A DNA stretch of 5,947 nucleotides, from positions 1 through 5,947 of the forward strand of contig JAEOSI010000148.1 of NCBI GenBank assembly GCA_016840425.1, given 5' to 3'. The DNA comes from Candidatus Wukongarchaeum yapensis. Its GTDB lineage: Archaea; Asgardarchaeota; Wukongarchaeia; Wukongarchaeales; Wukongarchaeaceae. This document shows positions 1 through 5,947 of this stretch, piece after piece. The first letter of the stretch is position 1; each line of letters starts with the position of its first letter. A program made the translations under genes and the position numbers. Under the pieces are notes generated by a model. The model ran no database searches, had not been told where the DNA came from, and saw nothing but the letters and a program-made list of their open reading frames with translations.

Positions 1-2
1 AA

Positions 3-674
3 GAAATAACCCCTCACATAAAGAAAGACGCGATTCTTACAGAAATTACTTCCATAAAAGCCTCCGTAGTAGAATCTTTAAGGGAGGCTTCTAGAACCCC
101 TATAAACGTGATAAGCCTTCATCCTATGTTTGGTTCTGGAGCAAAAAGTTTGGAAGATCTAAACATCGTTATCATACCCGTAACCGAAAAAAGTGAGGAA
201 ATTGCAAAGTCTTTAGGCGAATTTTTTAGAAAAGATGGTGCCAACATAATATTTTCAACTTTTGAAGAGCACGACCTCATAATGGCCTACGTTCTTGGTT
301 TACCTCACAGCGTAGGAATGATAATTGCTTCAATGATGGCGGAAAGCGGAATCTCGCCCAAAAGATTCAGGGAGTTTGCAGGATCAAGCTTTAAACTTCT
401 ACTCACCTTAACTGAATCTATAATATACCAAGGACCAGAACTCCCCACACTCATACATCTAACTAATCCCCATTCAGAACCCGTTATTAAAGGTTTTAAA
501 GACCGCTTACTCCACCTTACAAGCGCCATAAAAAACGAAGATCCAACAGCATTTGAAGAAATTTTCTCCAAGGCATCCATTTACCTTTCAAAAGACCCTC
601 TCTTTAAAGAAGCCTATAAACGGATGTACAAAGCAATAGAAGCCATAAAAAAAGAGACAAAACAGGTTAAATAA
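3..674 (+). CDS. tyrA: Prephenate/arogenate dehydrogenase (TyrA family), 5'-truncated by the window edge
   Basis: The frame is open from position 3 (EITPHIKKDAILTEITSIKASVVESLREASRTPINVISLHPMFG...), so the true start is upstream of the window, not at 108. TyrA motifs: xEITSIK (D-V-x-S-x-K equivalent), SLHPMFG (catalytic His), EEHDLIMAYVLGLPH (dimerisation-domain HD..ma...lpH), FAGSSF. Confidence 0.9.
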   Translation, partial: EITPHIKKDAILTEITSIKASVVESLREASRTPINVISLHPMFGSGAKSLEDLNIVIIPVTEKSEEIAKSLGEFFRKDGANIIFSTFEEHDLIMAYVLGLPHSVGMIIASMMAESGISPKRFREFAGSSFKLLLTLTESIIYQGPELPTLIHLTNPHSEPVIKGFKDRLLHLTSAIKNEDPTAFEEIFSKASIYLSKDPLFKEAYKRMYKAIEAIKKETKQVK

Positions 675-705
675 AAAGAGTTAAAAATGCTATAAACCCA
701 TAAAT

Positions 706-731
706 GAGTTAAGTTTATTAAGGTTTTAAGA
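706..731 (+). promoter_or_regulatory. Candidate BRE/TATA promoter of cimA
   Basis: GAGTTAAG-TTTATTAA (714-721) and TAAGG-TTTTAAGA (724-731) are two overlapping purine-rich plus TTTAWWA candidates in the tyrA-cimA spacer. Which one is used cannot be decided from sequence. Confidence 0.45.
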
Positions 732-805
732 TCTTTAATGGGTTTAGTTAACTTCAACCCTTGGTTCCCTTAACTGTATATTTTTGCGGAGCAAGACCCG
801 TTTTC

Positions 806-822
806 TGAGGTGTTTTAGGTGA
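806..822 (+). promoter_or_regulatory. Shine-Dalgarno site(s) for cimA
   Basis: TGAGGTG at 806-812 (10 nt before ATG 823) and AGGTGA at 817-822 (6 nt before in-frame GTG 829). Both match the archaeal GGAGGTGA consensus. Confidence 0.7.
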
Positions 823-2397
823 ATGGAAGTGAATACTTTATTGGATCGTAAAGATGTTTTTTCCTACGATGAAGAAGTTATTAAAAGATTAAAAAATGTG
901 CGGATTCTTGATACAACTTTGCGTGATGGGGAACAAACCCCTGGATGCATCCTAACTCCTCCTCAAAAGGTTAAAATCGCTCGAGCCTTAGATGAGTTTG
1001 GAGTTCACGTGATTGAGGCCGGGATGGCTATAACAAGCGTGGGTGAGCGTGAAGGAATAAAAGCAGTTAAAAGAGAAGGGTTAAATGCCGAGATCTGCGG
1101 TGGTTGTCGTGCAGTAATAGTCGACATAGAACGATCTCTTGAGTGTGATGTGGACAGTATACACCTAATAGTGCCTAGTTCAGAGCTTCACAGGAGAGAA
1201 AAGTTCGGAAAAACTTTGGAAGAAATTCTTGGCCTTACCGTAAAATGCATAGATTTTGCTAAAGATAACGGCCTTATAGTAGAGTTAAGCGCCGAAGACG
1301 GTTCAAGGGCAGACATAGACGACCTAATAGCCCTTTTCTCCACAGGTAAGGAGGCTAAAGCTGACAGGTTTTGTATCTGTGACACTGTTGGCATAGCTGT
1401 CCCTGAAAAGATCTATGCCCGATTTCAAATCCTTACAGAAACTTTTCCCGATATTCCTATAAGCGTCCACTGTCATAACGACTTTGGTTTGGCTGTAGCT
1501 AACACAATTGCGGCGCTAAAAGGAGGATCAAAACAGTTTCATGGCACGGTAAACGGTGTGGGAGAAAGGGCAGGCAATGTCGCCATAGAGGAAGTCATCA
1601 TGACTTTAAAAGCTCTATACGACGTAGAATTACCAGTTAAAACAGAGAAAATCTTCGAGCTTTCTAGACTGGTTTCAGACAATATGAACCTCCCTATAGC
1701 TTTTAATAAACCATTGGTTGGCGAGAACTCTTTTGCCCACGAGTCTGGGATACACTCTTCCGCCGTATTGAAAAACCCAGAAACATACGAACCCATCCCT
1801 CCCAATATAATAGGAAGAAGAAGACGCTTAGTAATGGGAAAACATGCAGGGAAAAAAGCCCTCAAAGAAGTTTTAGAAGAGTTCGGTTTTCACGTAACTG
1901 ACGACCAACTTGTCGAGATCTTTGAGAAGATGAAAAAACTCGCAGATCTTGGAAAAAAGGTAACGGACTCAGACCTTGTAGCCATAGCAGAAACAGTTAC
2001 TGAGGGAATGATAGAAGAAGCTGTGAAACTTGACGAATTGACCGTAGTAACTGGTAACAAAATCACGCCCACCGCAAGCGTTAAAATAGCTACAAACAAG
2101 AAAGAAATTTTTTCATCAGGCTTCGGAACAGGCCCGGTGGACGCAGCAATGAAAGCCATAGAATCAGCATTAAAAAACACAGAAATCCCGCAAATCCACC
2201 TCGCAGACTACCACGTCGACGCCATAACAGGAGGAACAGAAGCAGTAGTAAACGTAAGAATAACCCTAAGAAAAGGCGATAACATGATCACAGCAAGCGG
2301 AGCAGGCGGAGACATAGTAATGGCAAGCGTCGAAGCAATGCTCACAGGCTACAACAAAATGCTCGCCCTAGAAAAAAGAAAAAACAACAAAAAATAA
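823..2397 (+). CDS. cimA: (R)-citramalate synthase, archaeal type (DRE-TIM metallolyase with LeuA-type C-terminal allosteric domain)
   Basis: DTTLRDGEQTPG, HCHNDFGLAVAN, GVGERAGN and FAHESGIH mark the LeuA/CimA/homocitrate synthase family. Segments VIEAGxAITSxGEREGIK, EGLNAEIC, ECDVDSxHLxVP, GLIVELSAED, ADRxCxCDTVG and KLDELTVVxGNKITPxASVK closely match methanococcal CimA as I remember it. LeuA is less likely but not excluded. Confidence 0.82.
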   Translation: MEVNTLLDRKDVFSYDEEVIKRLKNVRILDTTLRDGEQTPGCILTPPQKVKIARALDEFGVHVIEAGMAITSVGEREGIKAVKREGLNAEICGGCRAVIVDIERSLECDVDSIHLIVPSSELHRREKFGKTLEEILGLTVKCIDFAKDNGLIVELSAEDGSRADIDDLIALFSTGKEAKADRFCICDTVGIAVPEKIYARFQILTETFPDIPISVHCHNDFGLAVANTIAALKGGSKQFHGTVNGVGERAGNVAIEEVIMTLKALYDVELPVKTEKIFELSRLVSDNMNLPIAFNKPLVGENSFAHESGIHSSAVLKNPETYEPIPPNIIGRRRRLVMGKHAGKKALKEVLEEFGFHVTDDQLVEIFEKMKKLADLGKKVTDSDLVAIAETVTEGMIEEAVKLDELTVVTGNKITPTASVKIATNKKEIFSSGFGTGPVDAAMKAIESALKNTEIPQIHLADYHVDAITGGTEAVVNVRITLRKGDNMITASGAGGDIVMASVEAMLTGYNKMLALEKRKNNKK

Positions 2398-2412
2398 ACA
2401 AAAGAAAAAAAT

Positions 2413-2441
2413 CTCCCCTTCTTTCTTCCCTTCCACCTTTT
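2413..2441 (+). terminator. Pyrimidine tract after the cimA stop, possible archaeal U-rich terminator
   Basis: CTCCCCTTCTTTCTTCCCTTCCACCTTTT begins 15 nt after TAA. Further T runs follow at about 2475-2495. Confidence 0.4.
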
Positions 2442-2511
2442 AATGACCAAATATCTCTTTCACTAAGCTATATCTTCCTTTTTCTCTGGTTTTCAAAATC
2501 ATAAAAAAAAT

Positions 2512-2550
2512 AGAAATTTTTGTGAAAAAATATTTTTCACAATTTTTTCT
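2512..2550. terminator. Hairpin between convergent cimA and ARPP-1 genes, probable bidirectional terminator
   Basis: Perfect 10-bp inverted repeat TTGTGAAAAA (2520-2529) / TTTTTCACAA (2533-2542) with an ATA loop, extended by AGAAA (2512-2516) / TTTCT (2546-2550). Flanked by A8 (2503-2510) and T-rich runs. Confidence 0.6.
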
Positions 2551-2565
2551 TTTTATTGTCTTTTT

Positions 2566-3717
2566 TTATTCTTGGTTTATTGATTGTTGTTGTGGTGTTG
2601 GCGGCGGCAGATTTCTTGAAATCTCTTCTGGTGTCAGGATGCGTTGTACTTGTGCTGTTTCTAATACCCGTCTTGGTTTTATTTTTTCTAGGCTGGATTT
2701 TCCTACTGCGTAGAAGTGTGCTATTTTATTTTCGTTTATGAGAGTTATTCCATGCCATCCTCCGTCTGATGAACTGAATTCGACGACGTAACCTAGTCCT
2801 GTTCCTTTTCGTGGTTCAATTTTAGAAGTTTTTTCGCTTAATGTTTCTAACGCTTTTCTATGTGCTTCTGACGTGCTAATTTTTTCCTTTTTTTCTTCTT
2901 CTTTTCCGCTTTTTTCCTTAATTTGTTGTCTTAGTAGGGTCTCAGATATATATCCTTTTAATACGTCAGTTCTGAAGTCTTTCCAAGCTTTTTGATTGCC
3001 GTAAAATTCGTAAGCGATAACTTCACCGTCTACAAGCACCGTGATGCCGCATTGACCTTCAACGTCCTTAAACTTTGATAGGTATTCTTCTATTTCCTCT
3101 TGTTTCGTTTCAATCATGTCAAGATAACTTCTTGTGGGTGCTTTGCTTCTTTCTATTCTCATGAGTTCACTGTAAGCTTCTACCGAGTCCCAAAGCATTG
3201 ATTGGTCTCCTTGTGTTTCCATAAGCCTCCTTGAAATACTTTGGTTCATTCTAGCTCCTGAGGTCTTAAATTTCCGCGTCTCTTTTCCACCATCAAACTG
3301 TATTCTTCCCCCATCTAATTGTGTCCCATAAGTCCACCTGGAGGCTTCTATACACCGTGCTGGTATAGGTAAGGGATTGCTCTTTTTACGCCCAGCAGGG
3401 ATAAGGATCGGTTCATAGACGGTTCTATCTTGCTTGCCCCCTTTAACTGTTTGCAGGAAAGGAATAAGTACCGGTTTTTCTCCCACATTTACTGCTTCTA
3501 ACTGGCCAACTAATTCTGAAACCTGTTCCTGTATCCATGCTACTTCTAATTCTTCAGCCTCTCGGATGGTGATAAAGTCTAAACCCTGATCTTGAAGAAT
3601 TAAAGGTATGACCGCCATGTTTTCATAAGCCTGGACTTCCCCAAATTTCAAAATCCTCGTCATATCCCCGACAAAGTCTTCCACAACTTCTTTCGCAACA
3701 TCTACATTATTACTCAC
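2566..3717 (-). CDS. ARPP-1 / DUF6569 family domain protein, 383 aa, GTG start
   Basis: NVGEKPVLIP..VKGGKQDRTV.EPILIPAG....IPARCIEASRW matches the ARPP-1 pattern N....PvLi..Ge.l.G.KQnR.....ilvp.....ipv.CvE..RW. Also present are QSMLWDSV (Q..vW..v) and GQCGITVLVDGEVIAYEFYG..KAWK.F...VLKGY. Has a K/E-rich insert (KEKSGKEEEKKEK) and a Pro/Gln disordered tail. Confidence 0.8.
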   Translation of the reverse strand: MSNNVDVAKEVVEDFVGDMTRILKFGEVQAYENMAVIPLILQDQGLDFITIREAEELEVAWIQEQVSELVGQLEAVNVGEKPVLIPFLQTVKGGKQDRTVYEPILIPAGRKKSNPLPIPARCIEASRWTYGTQLDGGRIQFDGGKETRKFKTSGARMNQSISRRLMETQGDQSMLWDSVEAYSELMRIERSKAPTRSYLDMIETKQEEIEEYLSKFKDVEGQCGITVLVDGEVIAYEFYGNQKAWKDFRTDVLKGYISETLLRQQIKEKSGKEEEKKEKISTSEAHRKALETLSEKTSKIEPRKGTGLGYVVEFSSSDGGWHGITLINENKIAHFYAVGKSSLEKIKPRRVLETAQVQRILTPEEISRNLPPPTPQQQSINQE

Positions 3718-3729
3718 ACTTATCTCGCC

Positions 3730-3757
3730 CCTATAAACCTTAAAAATAGGTTTTTAT
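3730..3757 (-). promoter_or_regulatory. Candidate BRE/TATA promoter of the ARPP-1 gene
   Basis: The minus strand reads AAAAACC-TATTTTTAAG-GTTTATAGG. The TTTTTAAG box starts about 30 nt before GTG 3717, which fits a leaderless transcript. A second box, TTTATAGG, would put the transcription start inside the ORF. Confidence 0.45.
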
Positions 3758-4034
3758 ATTCTTTGAAGCTCAAAAATTTAAACGCATTTAAAGCTGTTTA
3801 ATATGTTTCCTCCTAAACTTCTCTAAGAATCTGACCCCAAGAAATAACATCTAGTTTATTTATTTACCTTTCACCTTCTTATTTCTTATCATTCCCATAC
3901 CTCTTTAATTACCAAATTTTCAATCTATTCTAAGAAACCAGATATACAAGCTACTAAACCTACCATTCAGTATACCCTCTTTAATACTAGAGAAATTTTA
4001 GAACCAACGTTCATATAACAACAGTTTTTTGGGT

Positions 4035-4457
4035 TTATTTCCATCTTTTTTTCTTTTTTGCATTTCTTCTCGCTAGTATTGCTAATATTACGGCTAGTCC
4101 TTGGAGGGTAAAAAGGAGTCGCATGGCTTCTAAAAGCCCCTCGATTATAGCTACGAATATGAATAATATTATGAGCGTTATTAAGCCTATTCCTGCCCCT
4201 ATAATTATTAGAAATCTTCCTGTAAAGAGGTGTTCCTTGCTTATTGCTATACCACCTAAAATAACCGTTATGCCCCCAAAAGCAGCTAAGATAAAAATTA
4301 TGACAAAAATGGTGCGGAAAAAGTTTTCGTATTCGGGTAATTCTTTTGTTAGCCAGTCTGTTAATAATTTCCAAAACCAGGGGAATATGCGCCAATTAGT
4401 TAATATGAAAAGTATTCCAGAAATAAATGCATAAAAAACAGCTTTCTTATATCTCAA
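4035..4457 (-). CDS. Uncharacterised 4-TM membrane protein, 140 aa, TTG start
   Basis: Hydrophobic segments at about aa 7-22, 50-72, 82-105 and 113-129. Gly-rich packing motifs (FGGITVILGG, GRFLIIIGAGIGL), an amphipathic helix after TM1, and basic termini (MRYKK; RRNAKKKKRWK) fit the positive-inside rule. A BRE/TATA lies just upstream. Confidence 0.75.
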   Translation of the reverse strand: MRYKKAVFYAFISGILFILTNWRIFPWFWKLLTDWLTKELPEYENFFRTIFVIIFILAAFGGITVILGGIAISKEHLFTGRFLIIIGAGIGLITLIILFIFVAIIEGLLEAMRLLFTLQGLAVILAILARRNAKKKKRWK

Positions 4458-4485
4458 GGTCGGTCGGAAAATTTTTGGGAAAATC

Positions 4486-4500
4486 GATTTTAAATCTTTC
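4486..4500 (-). promoter_or_regulatory. BRE/TATA promoter of the 140-aa gene
   Basis: The minus strand reads GAAAG-ATTTAAAA. The predicted transcription start is about 4463, a few nt before TTG 4457. No SD is visible, consistent with a near-leaderless transcript. Confidence 0.5.
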
Positions 4501-4562
4501 TAAGAAAAAATTAGCGATAATTTTCCCAGTATGCCTACATAAACCTTTAAAATAAATTTTTT

Positions 4563-4625
4563 CAAATTCTTTTAATATATTATTATAGTCGTTTTAATGG
4601 TTTTAGTTTAGGTATTTTGTGAGGT
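4563..4625 (+). promoter_or_regulatory. TATA box and SD of the 223-aa gene (divergent promoter region 4458-4632)
   Basis: CAAATTC-TTTTAATATAT (4563-4580) and GTGAGGT (4619-4625), 7 nt before TTG 4633. Confidence 0.55.
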
Positions 4626-4632
4626 TTTTCCT

Positions 4633-5304
4633 TTGGCTTTTAACTGGATACTATTTTTGATTATTTTTGGGGCTTTTTTTTCTGTTTTCTTTTTGCTTGG
4701 CAGGATGAAAAACAAACTGATTTTAAGAGACATCGGGCAAGAAATCGAAGGAATTTTGACAAAATACGTTACCGGGGTAAAAATTTTGGGAAAATCTTCA
4801 AGGGCTGCAGCTTTTTCCTTTAGCTTGTCCAAAGAAGCTCCCTTTAACTCTTTAGATATCACGGTAGTTTTAGGTCATAGGGGCACTCTTGGATATTACA
4901 TAAAAAAAGCGTTTAAAAGATCTTTAGACAAAATCGCTTTCGATGCAGATTTTAAACACAAACCAAAAGCAGAATTCATAATCGTTCCAAAAAGTGAAAC
5001 AAAGTTGATCAGCGAGTATAAAGAACACTTAATGAAGTTTCAACTGGTAAAAATCAATAAAGCAGAAATCGATGATTTTTACATGATCCGTGCTTCAAAC
5101 GAAAGCATCGGAAAACAAATTTCAACAAACAAAAGAATTTTCAATCCTCTTTTAAAAATAAAGCCCTTCGTTTTCAGCGTCTCCATAGGTAAAGAAGCGC
5201 CAAATATGCGCGCAATATTTTACCTTCCCTCTTATTTAAAGGATATGAAAATCACCATAAACTTTCTCTTCATTCTAGGAGAACTACTCCAAAAATCAAA
5301 GTGA
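4633..5304 (+). CDS. Single-pass membrane protein with a cytosolic alpha/beta domain; putative CCDC47 (DUF1682, PAT complex)-like, 223 aa, TTG start
   Basis: Good SD. N-terminal TM (aa 5-22) is immediately followed by G-R-M-K-N, then a K-rich globular domain whose motifs line up in order with CCDC47 (see findings). The CDS is well supported; the family call is a by-eye remote homology. Confidence 0.65.
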   Translation: [223 protein letters not shown]

Positions 5305-5338
5305 ACTGCTACCCCAAAATAGACTAAAAAAACGTAAT

Positions 5339-5372
5339 AAAAAGGATTATATTTTAATTATAACCCTTTTTT
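5339..5372. terminator. Hairpin between the convergent 223-aa and 169-aa genes, probable bidirectional terminator
   Basis: AAAAAGGATTATA (5339-5351) / TATAACCCTTTTT (5359-5371): 13-bp stem with one mismatch and a 7-nt loop, giving a T-run on the downstream arm of each strand. Confidence 0.6.
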
Positions 5373-5393
5373 CATCCTCTGTTGTGCTAATTG

Positions 5394-5903
5394 TCAGAAC
5401 TCTTCTGTTCTGAGACCGATTAAACCGGCTATAAGTAAGAATAATGCACCGATAGGTATTGGATATATGGTCGCAGCTCCTAGATTATCGTCGAGGACTG
5501 TGTATCCCATTAAGGTGAAAGCAAAACCAGCAATTGCGGCAAGAATTAAGAATATTCCTCCTGTCTTTGGGTCAAAAAACGTAATTAGAAACCCTAATGC
5601 TACTAGTGCTAAGGTTGCTGCCCAAAGAATCATCATAGTTTGTCCATCATCAGCACCCCATACTTCTTTCCATGCGTCTACCGAAAAGAAGCTTCTTTCT
5701 GTATAGCCTACATCCGGATATTCAAGGATGCCATATTCATCGGCAGAGACTGTGACTGGACCAAATCCTGCAGAAACACGGAAATATGCGTAAAACAGTC
5801 CTATAACCCAGGTTGCATCAAGCCCATTAAAGTCGACGTAAAAAACTGATATCGGCAATACCATTGCAAAAATCGTTAGGCCTAATACCGAGTTTTTTCC
5901 CAT
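5394..5903 (-). CDS. Uncharacterised 4-TM membrane protein with a large first loop (tetraspan, claudin-like layout), 169 aa
   Basis: ATG preceded by GGGGTT about 6 nt upstream; an in-frame stop 8 codons upstream fixes the start. TM1 is about aa 5-21, followed by an aromatic/acidic loop (about 22-88) and three closely spaced TMs (about 90-110, 115-135, 147-164). Confidence 0.78.
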   Translation of the reverse strand: MGKNSVLGLTIFAMVLPISVFYVDFNGLDATWVIGLFYAYFRVSAGFGPVTVSADEYGILEYPDVGYTERSFFSVDAWKEVWGADDGQTMMILWAATLALVALGFLITFFDPKTGGIFLILAAIAGFAFTLMGYTVLDDNLGAATIYPIPIGALFLLIAGLIGLRTEEF

Positions 5904-5947
5904 ATTATTAACCCCATAACTAAATTAGGAATTGGTAGATTAAAGTT

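Follow-up and report, generated by a model that had tools for sequence, protein, structure and literature searches.

A 223-aa protein of the Asgard archaeon Candidatus Wukongarchaeum yapensis is very probably a highly divergent homolog of the core of CCDC47, a eukaryotic aid to membrane protein assembly at the endoplasmic reticulum that partners Asterix in the PAT complex (PMC9630114) and adjoins TMCO1 in the translocon (PMC7505659). Its gene lies at positions 4633 to 5304 on the positive strand (TTG start, stop included) of the window, by which we mean the whole 5,947-nt stretch of DNA analyzed here (contig JAEOSI010000148.1, positions 1 to 5,947). The predicted model of this protein has the fold of the CCDC47 transmembrane (TM) helix and cytosolic globular domain, and the topology, the collinearity, and a profile link of a transitive kind agree with the fold on this relationship.

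Architecture and predicted fold of the 223-aa protein

The sole hydrophobic helix of the protein spans residues 5 to 23 (positions 4645 to 4701, positive strand), with an uncharged N terminus of four residues before it and a +3 cluster after it. By the positive-inside rule, the protein is predicted to be oriented N-out/C-in (type III) in the plasma membrane. The helix leads into the sequence G-R-M-K-N-K, which contains a juxtamembrane G-R-x-K-N motif (residues 23 to 27; positions 4699 to 4713, positive strand) in which G23 and N27 hardly vary across the family. The remainder is a basic alpha/beta globular domain with a pI of 9.9 (residues 45 to 223; positions 4765 to 5301, positive strand), in which R83, D99, P119, E122, and P190 are conserved. 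The domain ends with a helix at residues 202 to 221 and carries no charged tail. All family members examined likewise consist of a single TM helix and a basic domain, with pI values of 9.1 to 10.2.

The AlphaFold2 model was of high confidence (mean predicted local distance difference test [pLDDT] of 90.7, predicted template modeling score [pTM] of 0.85). It comprises a TM and juxtamembrane helix at residues 2 to 44, a mixed beta-sheet with helices, and the last helix at residues 202 to 221. A preliminary description, made from the DNA sequence alone, had proposed a single N-terminal TM helix followed by a globular domain, and both the sequence and the model bear this out. The chain stops at residue 223, straight after the last core helix, without the basic C-terminal coiled-coil or latch helices. 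It also has neither a signal peptide nor an acidic lumenal N-terminal domain, the TM helix beginning at residue 5.

In a structural comparison, the model aligned best with CCDC47 of PDB entry 7TM3 (chain 4; score of 18.3), with 218 of the 223 residues superimposed at a root mean square deviation of 2.9 Å. The alignment placed archaeal residues 2 to 223 onto CCDC47 residues 135 to 397. Scores in the same comparison were 17.2 for Chaetomium CCDC47 (9I78 chain 4), 13.1 for CCDC47 of 6W6L (chain 7), and 12.3 for mycobacterial TtfA (6T84); the first unrelated fold scored 7.0. The chains of 7TM3 and 6W6L were confirmed as CCDC47. Foldseek gave an E value of 5e-9. The check that the preliminary description had proposed, an AlphaFold model compared with CCDC47 structures, returned CCDC47 as the top fold. 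In AFDB-SwissProt, ranks 1 to 12 were all CCDC47 orthologs, from vertebrates, Arabidopsis, Schizosaccharomyces pombe, and yeast, with TM-scores of 0.67 to 0.79 and nearly all 223 residues aligned. Among AFDB clusters, those named DUF1682 or CCDC47, together with unnamed ones, had TM-scores of 0.71 to 0.82, as opposed to 0.40 to 0.53 for DUF3137 clusters. The top cluster was A0A524E9S6, a long DUF1682 form from Heimdallarchaeaceae (TM-score of 0.82). An Atlas feature search ranked bacterial "hypothetical protein" clusters at 0.96 to 0.97 and a CCDC47 cluster at 0.79; we regard these matches as leads only.

The archaeal protein and CCDC47 share a single TM helix, a G-[KR]-x-[KR]-N helix next to the membrane, an alpha/beta domain that in the archaeal protein is predicted to be cytosolic, and the same predicted orientation. 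They differ in that the archaeal core is about 40 residues shorter, lacks the signal peptide, the acidic lumenal domain, and the C-terminal helices, and is predicted to reside in a prokaryotic plasma membrane rather than the endoplasmic reticulum. Eukaryotic CCDC47 proteins include yeast YNR021W, S. pombe C2G5.01, and Arabidopsis At5g49945, and the structures considered were 7TM3, 6W6L, and 9I78. The preliminary description had also quoted a series of motifs said to recur in human CCDC47. One quoted human motif proved to be exact, at residues 258 to 282, and the structural alignment places it collinear with archaeal residues 114 to 136, but the motif pairs were not significant as sequence.

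Sequence link to CCDC47

The Pfam model for the CCDC47 family, PF07946 (DUF1682), has a curated gathering cutoff of 27.7 bits. It matched 5 of 18 family representatives, collinearly from the TM helix onward, with a best score of 26.8 bits. Members from other Asgard genomes exceeded the cutoff (35.0 bits for L029, 32.6 for L028, and 27.9 for L034), the last of these through the TM and juxtamembrane stretch alone. Sequence conservation between the archaeal and eukaryotic proteins likewise peaks in the TM helix and in the G-[KR]-x-[KR]-N helix that adjoins it. Over the phylum, PF07946 found the same genes as the family profile, with E values of 0.01 or better in 40 of 400 genomes and 13 above the cutoff; in 14 control prokaryotes it had no match. 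Forms without a C-terminal tail passed as well, on profile positions 7 to 206 alone (36.8 bits for G047 and 36.4 bits for G119). Thus, the K/E-rich tail does not drive the PF07946 matches.

The clade of the window protein was joined to the long forms of Heimdallarchaeaceae by an hhalign probability of 99.5% (E value of 4.4e-23 over 217 columns), and pairwise BLASTP gave an E value of 5e-9. When 1.84 billion representatives were searched exhaustively with phmmer, only 17 matches were returned, mostly with the same architecture; all were 159 to 255 aa long except an outlier, P0021 (590 aa, with a short repeated match), which was left out. Word-indexed searches with profiles A2 and A5 reached archaea only. 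Among PDB sequences, phmmer with the 223-aa protein found nothing relevant, and neither hmmsearch with archaeal profiles A1 to A3 nor phmmer with the long form P0022 found a CCDC47 chain. The sequence link between the archaeal family and CCDC47 therefore runs only via the Pfam model. A Pfam match of the 223-aa protein to DUF1699 was at chance level and was rejected.

The fold, the profile link, and the end of the chain straight after helix 202 to 221 support the earlier proposal that this is a prokaryotic CCDC47 TM helix and cytosolic core that stops before the charged C-terminal helices.

The open reading frame is a genuine gene

The host assembly totals 2.16 Mb in 277 contigs and is 92% complete. 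The open reading frame (ORF) at 4633 to 5304 is confirmed as a genuine gene. Four of its five close orthologs, which are 88 to 97% identical to the 223-aa protein, are exactly 223 aa long, and the fifth has 199 aa. Comparison with the ortholog in the nearest relative (L001) gave a dS of 0.21 and a dN/dS ratio of 0.24; the gene is therefore under purifying selection. Because an in-frame stop lies about seven codons 5′ of the TTG (the maximal open frame being 230 aa) and the next gene begins 89 nt past the stop codon, the protein cannot extend at either end.

A GAGG Shine-Dalgarno-like motif, read from the sequence, lies at 4621 to 4624 on the positive strand, 8 nt before the TTG, and AT-rich boxes precede the start; both features are kept in L001. 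The two genomes are 95% identical over a 241-nt aligned stretch (4440 to 4680) that covers the start and promoter-like region. The start follows an AT-rich, divergent intergenic region of 175 bp (4458 to 4632) with TATA-like boxes, which separates the 223-aa gene from a gene for a 140-aa protein. Metagenomes of marine sediment and of marsh, collected in several studies, contain near-identical DNA.

Distribution of the family and related proteins

The family profile found the gene in 116 of the 400 genomes and in 33 of 85 genera of the phylum, often in two copies. The largest family of the phylum is nearly devoid of it (1 of 135).

Heimdallarchaeaceae encode forms of about 300 aa (P0047, P0051, and P0022) with the same TM helix, motif, and core fold as the 223-aa protein. 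Unlike it, they pass PF07946 themselves, continue into a linker and a C-terminal helix, and have a Ras-family GTPase gene upstream. The helix (residues 252 to 298) is 47 residues long, rich in K, E, and R, and collinear with the post-core helices of CCDC47. Automatic annotation at NCBI and UniProt labels some of these long forms "DUF1682 domain-containing protein." At three Heimdallarchaeaceae loci (L027, L028, and L029), the Ras-family small GTPase gene is directly upstream on the same strand (e.g., L029, 7301 to 7870; 110 bits to PF00071). Ras-like genes also occur near the CCDC47-like gene in two further families (L030 and L032). Small GTPases are numerous in Asgard genomes, so all of these proximities may be due to chance.

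Other members sit in a different setting. A Bathyarchaeia protein that NCBI labels DUF3137 is encoded in an operon of the order cstA, CCDC47-like gene, small protein gene, arsA, and arsA (L056), and the Asgard copies at L039, L040, and L054 lie beside or inside cstA-cstX-arsA-arsA clusters. The cluster is thus common to an Asgard and a TACK archaeon (L054, 2142 to 7080, on contig C16 of genome G398; L056, 3394 to 8870). At these two loci it contains cstA, the CCDC47-like or cstY gene, one or two genes for proteins of about 90 aa (DUF7990 in L056), and one or two genes for single-domain ArsA/Get3 ATPases. CstY was described as a protein of about 210 aa with a single transmembrane segment that coevolves with CstA and ArsA (Castillo and Saier 2010, PMC2963123), a study that reported a CstY in Thermococcus kodakarensis and drew no link to CCDC47. 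By position and size, the family members in cstA-arsA operons match CstY. The 223-aa protein resembles CstY in its single transmembrane segment and its length (223 aa versus about 210 aa), but its gene is in no cstA-cstX-arsA cluster and its host has no detectable CstA.

A second connection leads to a bacterial family, DUF3137 (PF11335; cutoff of 26.1 bits). The Bathyarchaeia representative P0007 scored 31.7 bits against PF11335, which passes, and 26.8 bits against PF07946, which nearly passes, and so bridges the two models. PF11335 has matches in Bacteroides thetaiotaomicron and none in the 223-aa protein or the host genome. The DUF3137 fold is related (TM-scores of 0.40 to 0.53, as given above) but clearly less similar than that of CCDC47. 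Trehalose monomycolate transport factor A (TtfA; PDB 6T84), a bacterial protein, shares the fold in a match much weaker than that of CCDC47; this likeness is by structure alone and omits the TM and juxtamembrane region.

CCDC47, CstY, DUF3137, and TtfA thus appear to form one superfamily across the three domains of life, within which the Asgard proteins are, as judged from predicted models, structurally nearest to CCDC47. Because of the Bathyarchaeia relatives, the DUF3137 bridge, and the TtfA fold, the family is not a clean Asgard-plus-eukaryote signature. The preliminary description had cautioned that prokaryotic relatives might exist, and the Bathyarchaeia cstA-arsA operons, the DUF3137 bridge, and the TtfA fold justify that caution.

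Place of the window copy within the family

The class to which the window protein belongs (delimited by taxonomy) comprises three species with two paralogs each. The second copy in the host genome, on contig C118, is 29% identical to the 223-aa protein and is its closest match in pairwise BLASTP (E value of 9e-25). The least similar is the CstA-cluster copy of the sister family (E value of 7e-5). A maximum likelihood (ML) tree weakly (92/76) placed the 223-aa protein in a clade with the CstA-linked copies and the Bathyarchaeia member, but an approximately unbiased (AU) test did not reject a single clade of the 223-aa protein and the C118-type paralogs (P = 0.27). As to orthology of the 223-aa gene with the CstA-cluster copy, the ML tree is weakly for it and pairwise similarity against it, and the AU test does not decide.

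On contig C118, the second copy retains a gene order shared with other Asgard families: a nucleotidyltransferase gene upstream and Nnr downstream. Most Asgard members outside the class of the window protein carry a basic C-terminal tail of 5 to 70 residues. Among the Asgard loci examined, the tail is absent only in that class; it is also absent in two short non-Asgard representatives, P0007 and P0008. In place of the clade motif D-R-E-N-x-x-H, the 223-aa protein has G-H-R-G-T-L. The preliminary description had suggested an ancestral, minimal form. That suggestion is not favored, since most relatives are tailed, the Heimdall forms carry a long helix, and the window copy is a long-branch paralog. 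From these comparisons, the 223-aa gene looks like a relocated, fast-evolving, tail-less paralog instead.

Downstream of the C118 paralog, on the same strand, lies a gene for a 186-aa protein with four TM helices and a C-terminal zinc ribbon; the pair is found at L022 (7974 to 9359; genome G000, contig C118). The same pair occurs in the same genus and in the sister family (L055, 6312 to 7696; L024, 4628 to 6235; phmmer E value of 1e-22). Residues 8 to 195 of a 289-aa AFDB cluster entry called "Zinc-ribbon domain-containing protein" match the CCDC47-like model with a TM-score of 0.68; a zinc ribbon elsewhere in this entry is suggested by its name only. Prediction of a complex between the C118 paralog and the zinc-ribbon protein scored 0.00, which speaks neither for nor against binding.

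Possible function and alternative explanations

In eukaryotes, CCDC47's globular domain makes contact with eL6 and rRNA helix H25, and its basic C-terminal coiled-coil reaches Sec61 and the tunnel exit (PMC7505659). In the archaeal protein, the TM and juxtamembrane helix would dock on a polytopic membrane partner, much as CCDC47 holds Asterix, CstY goes with CstA, and TtfA goes with MmpL3, and the protein would act as a membrane-anchored cytoplasmic scaffold. Its basic globular domain would lie at the cytoplasmic face of the membrane, where it would most likely aid the assembly or biogenesis of multipass membrane proteins. Lacking the latch helices, it could neither reach the ribosomal tunnel exit nor insert itself next to SecY in the way that CCDC47 wedges in next to Sec61. 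For this reason, any role at the translocon would be scaffold-like rather than gate-regulating. Consistent with a scaffold are the single TM helix and basic domain of all members, the cstA-cstX-arsA operons, and the presence in the host genome of one gene for an EMC3/TMCO1-family insertase (contig C78). By analogy with CCDC47, a role as a scaffold of membrane protein biogenesis is a tentative assignment that we consider possible but doubtful. Taken as a whole, a blend of CCDC47-core homology and a biogenesis scaffold is the best explanation of the data, and we hold it to be somewhat more probable than its negation.

Several observations weigh against this explanation. The 223-aa protein itself has no match to PF07946 at E values up to 10, and the host genome contains no match anywhere. 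The profile check proposed in the preliminary description was thus positive for relatives (27.9 to 36.8 bits) and, through hhalign, for the clade, but not for the protein that it concerned. Structure-based identity to CCDC47 is only 10 to 14%. Asterix (PF03669) has no match in the host genome, and none of the 400 genomes of the phylum has one above the cutoff, there being only weak, stop-interrupted matches; small TM proteins may escape hidden Markov models, and the controls for this search included no positive. The host genome also yielded no eL6, so the contact that CCDC47 makes with this protein need not exist there. In the ML tree, the 223-aa protein stands on a long branch (1.7 substitutions per site), and its position there has weak support (92/76). 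Finally, the neighbors of the gene are conserved only within the genus, and its context gives no functional clue.

The low identity, and the failure of three archaeal profiles to retrieve a CCDC47 chain from PDB sequences, would fit a likeness that arose by convergence on a common membrane-anchored alpha/beta sandwich without shared ancestry. We find this highly improbable: the match is full length and collinear, it takes in the TM helix as well as the G-[KR]-x-[KR]-N motif, the predicted topology of a single TM helix and then a cytosolic domain is the same, and relatives exceed the PF07946 cutoff both with and without the tail. If ancestry is shared, it could still be that of an adaptor fold only, with the 223-aa protein serving as an accessory subunit reserved for a single transporter or membrane enzyme (compare CstY with CstA and ArsA, or TtfA with MmpL3) and not as a general biogenesis factor. 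The weak grouping of the protein in the ML tree with copies from cstA-cstX-arsA-arsA clusters in Asgard archaea and Bathyarchaeia, whose arrangement recalls that of CstY, points this way. Yet no CstA was detected in the 92%-complete host genome, its single full Get3/ArsA gene is on another contig (C48), and no transporter gene adjoins the 223-aa gene among the window ORFs searched with Pfam. Similarity in BLASTP also runs the other way, being greatest with the C118 paralog and least with the CstA-cluster copy. On balance, we think such a subunit fairly unlikely, although it is the main rival to the scaffold reading.

The long terminal branch, the missing tail, the replaced clade motif, the lack of conserved neighbors beyond the genus, and the occupation of the conserved syntenic position by the C118 copy could together mark the gene as a relic, that is, a duplicate whose first partner and whose tail are gone and which is now drifting, nearly or wholly functionless. 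Such decay fits poorly with a dN/dS ratio of 0.24 at a dS of 0.21, an intact frame of exactly 223 aa in four of five close relatives, retention of the family-invariant R83 and D99, a folded model of very high confidence, and conservation of the start and promoter-like regions. A relic is therefore quite improbable. CCDC47-core homology joined to a scaffold role remains the explanation that we prefer.

Other genes in the window

The 223-aa gene is flanked by genes for two proteins of no known family, each with four TM helices and each kept only within the genus: the divergent 140-aa protein (4035 to 4457, negative strand) and a convergent 169-aa protein (5394 to 5903, negative strand). A 142-aa ORF in another frame (3967 to 4395, negative strand) overlaps the former. 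The 140-aa ORF is conserved in a relative (E value of 3e-52) and is likely the true gene of the pair; the 142-aa ORF, which lacks a TM helix, is probably spurious. The protein of 383 aa encoded at positions 2566 to 3717 (negative strand) contains a complete ARPP-1 domain (PF20208; 168 bits, E value of 3e-49); the name of this family reflects an association with ARG and with genes of the rhodanese-phosphatase superfamily. The remaining two are ordinary amino acid biosynthesis genes, encoding the C-terminal part of a prephenate dehydrogenase (3 to 674, positive strand) and a 524-aa enzyme of the isopropylmalate/homocitrate synthase family with HMGL-like, HCS_D2, and LeuA_dimer domains (823 to 2397, positive strand). 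The window contains no cstA, cstX, or arsA/Get3 gene.

Significance

The PAT complex has been called strictly conserved throughout eukaryotes, with archaeal ancestry discussed only for TMCO1 (2025, PMC12572126), and the translocon components named for Asgard archaea are Sec61, OST, and TRAP, not CCDC47 (2024, PMC11417166). Our literature search returned no paper that connects Asgard archaea with CCDC47, DUF1682, PF07946, or the term "multipass translocon," and none of these terms is mentioned in the accessible part of the supplements of Eme et al. 2023. What is new is an archaeal family with a minimal CCDC47 core and no detectable Asterix; the automatic DUF1682 labels on some Heimdall forms were known.

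It is conceivable, if rather unlikely, that eukaryotic CCDC47 derives from this archaeal family and that its members, the tail-less copy of the window included, already serve, next to SecYEG, a YidC-like insertase, or Get3, as membrane-anchored scaffolds of multipass membrane protein biogenesis. If so, the PAT arm of the multipass translocon would have had a forerunner in this family, one older than eukaryotes and free of Asterix. CstY of the cstA-Get3 operons would be a specialized cousin, and the Heimdall forms would already have possessed the ribosome-reaching basic helix.

It is the family, and not this locus, that gives these findings their value, since the copy in the window is the most derived and least informative one, being divergent, tail-less, and without conserved context. 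Proteins of 220 to 300 aa offer a tractable means to study what the CCDC47 core does in isolation from Asterix, from the lumenal domain, and from the latch helices, and the association of the CstY branch with Get3-type ATPases gives a concrete clue to the way in which Get3 of archaea contacts the membrane. The family ties together four formerly separate names, CCDC47, CstY, DUF3137, and TtfA, and would add one part to the eukaryote-like components of membrane biogenesis that are older than eukaryotes.
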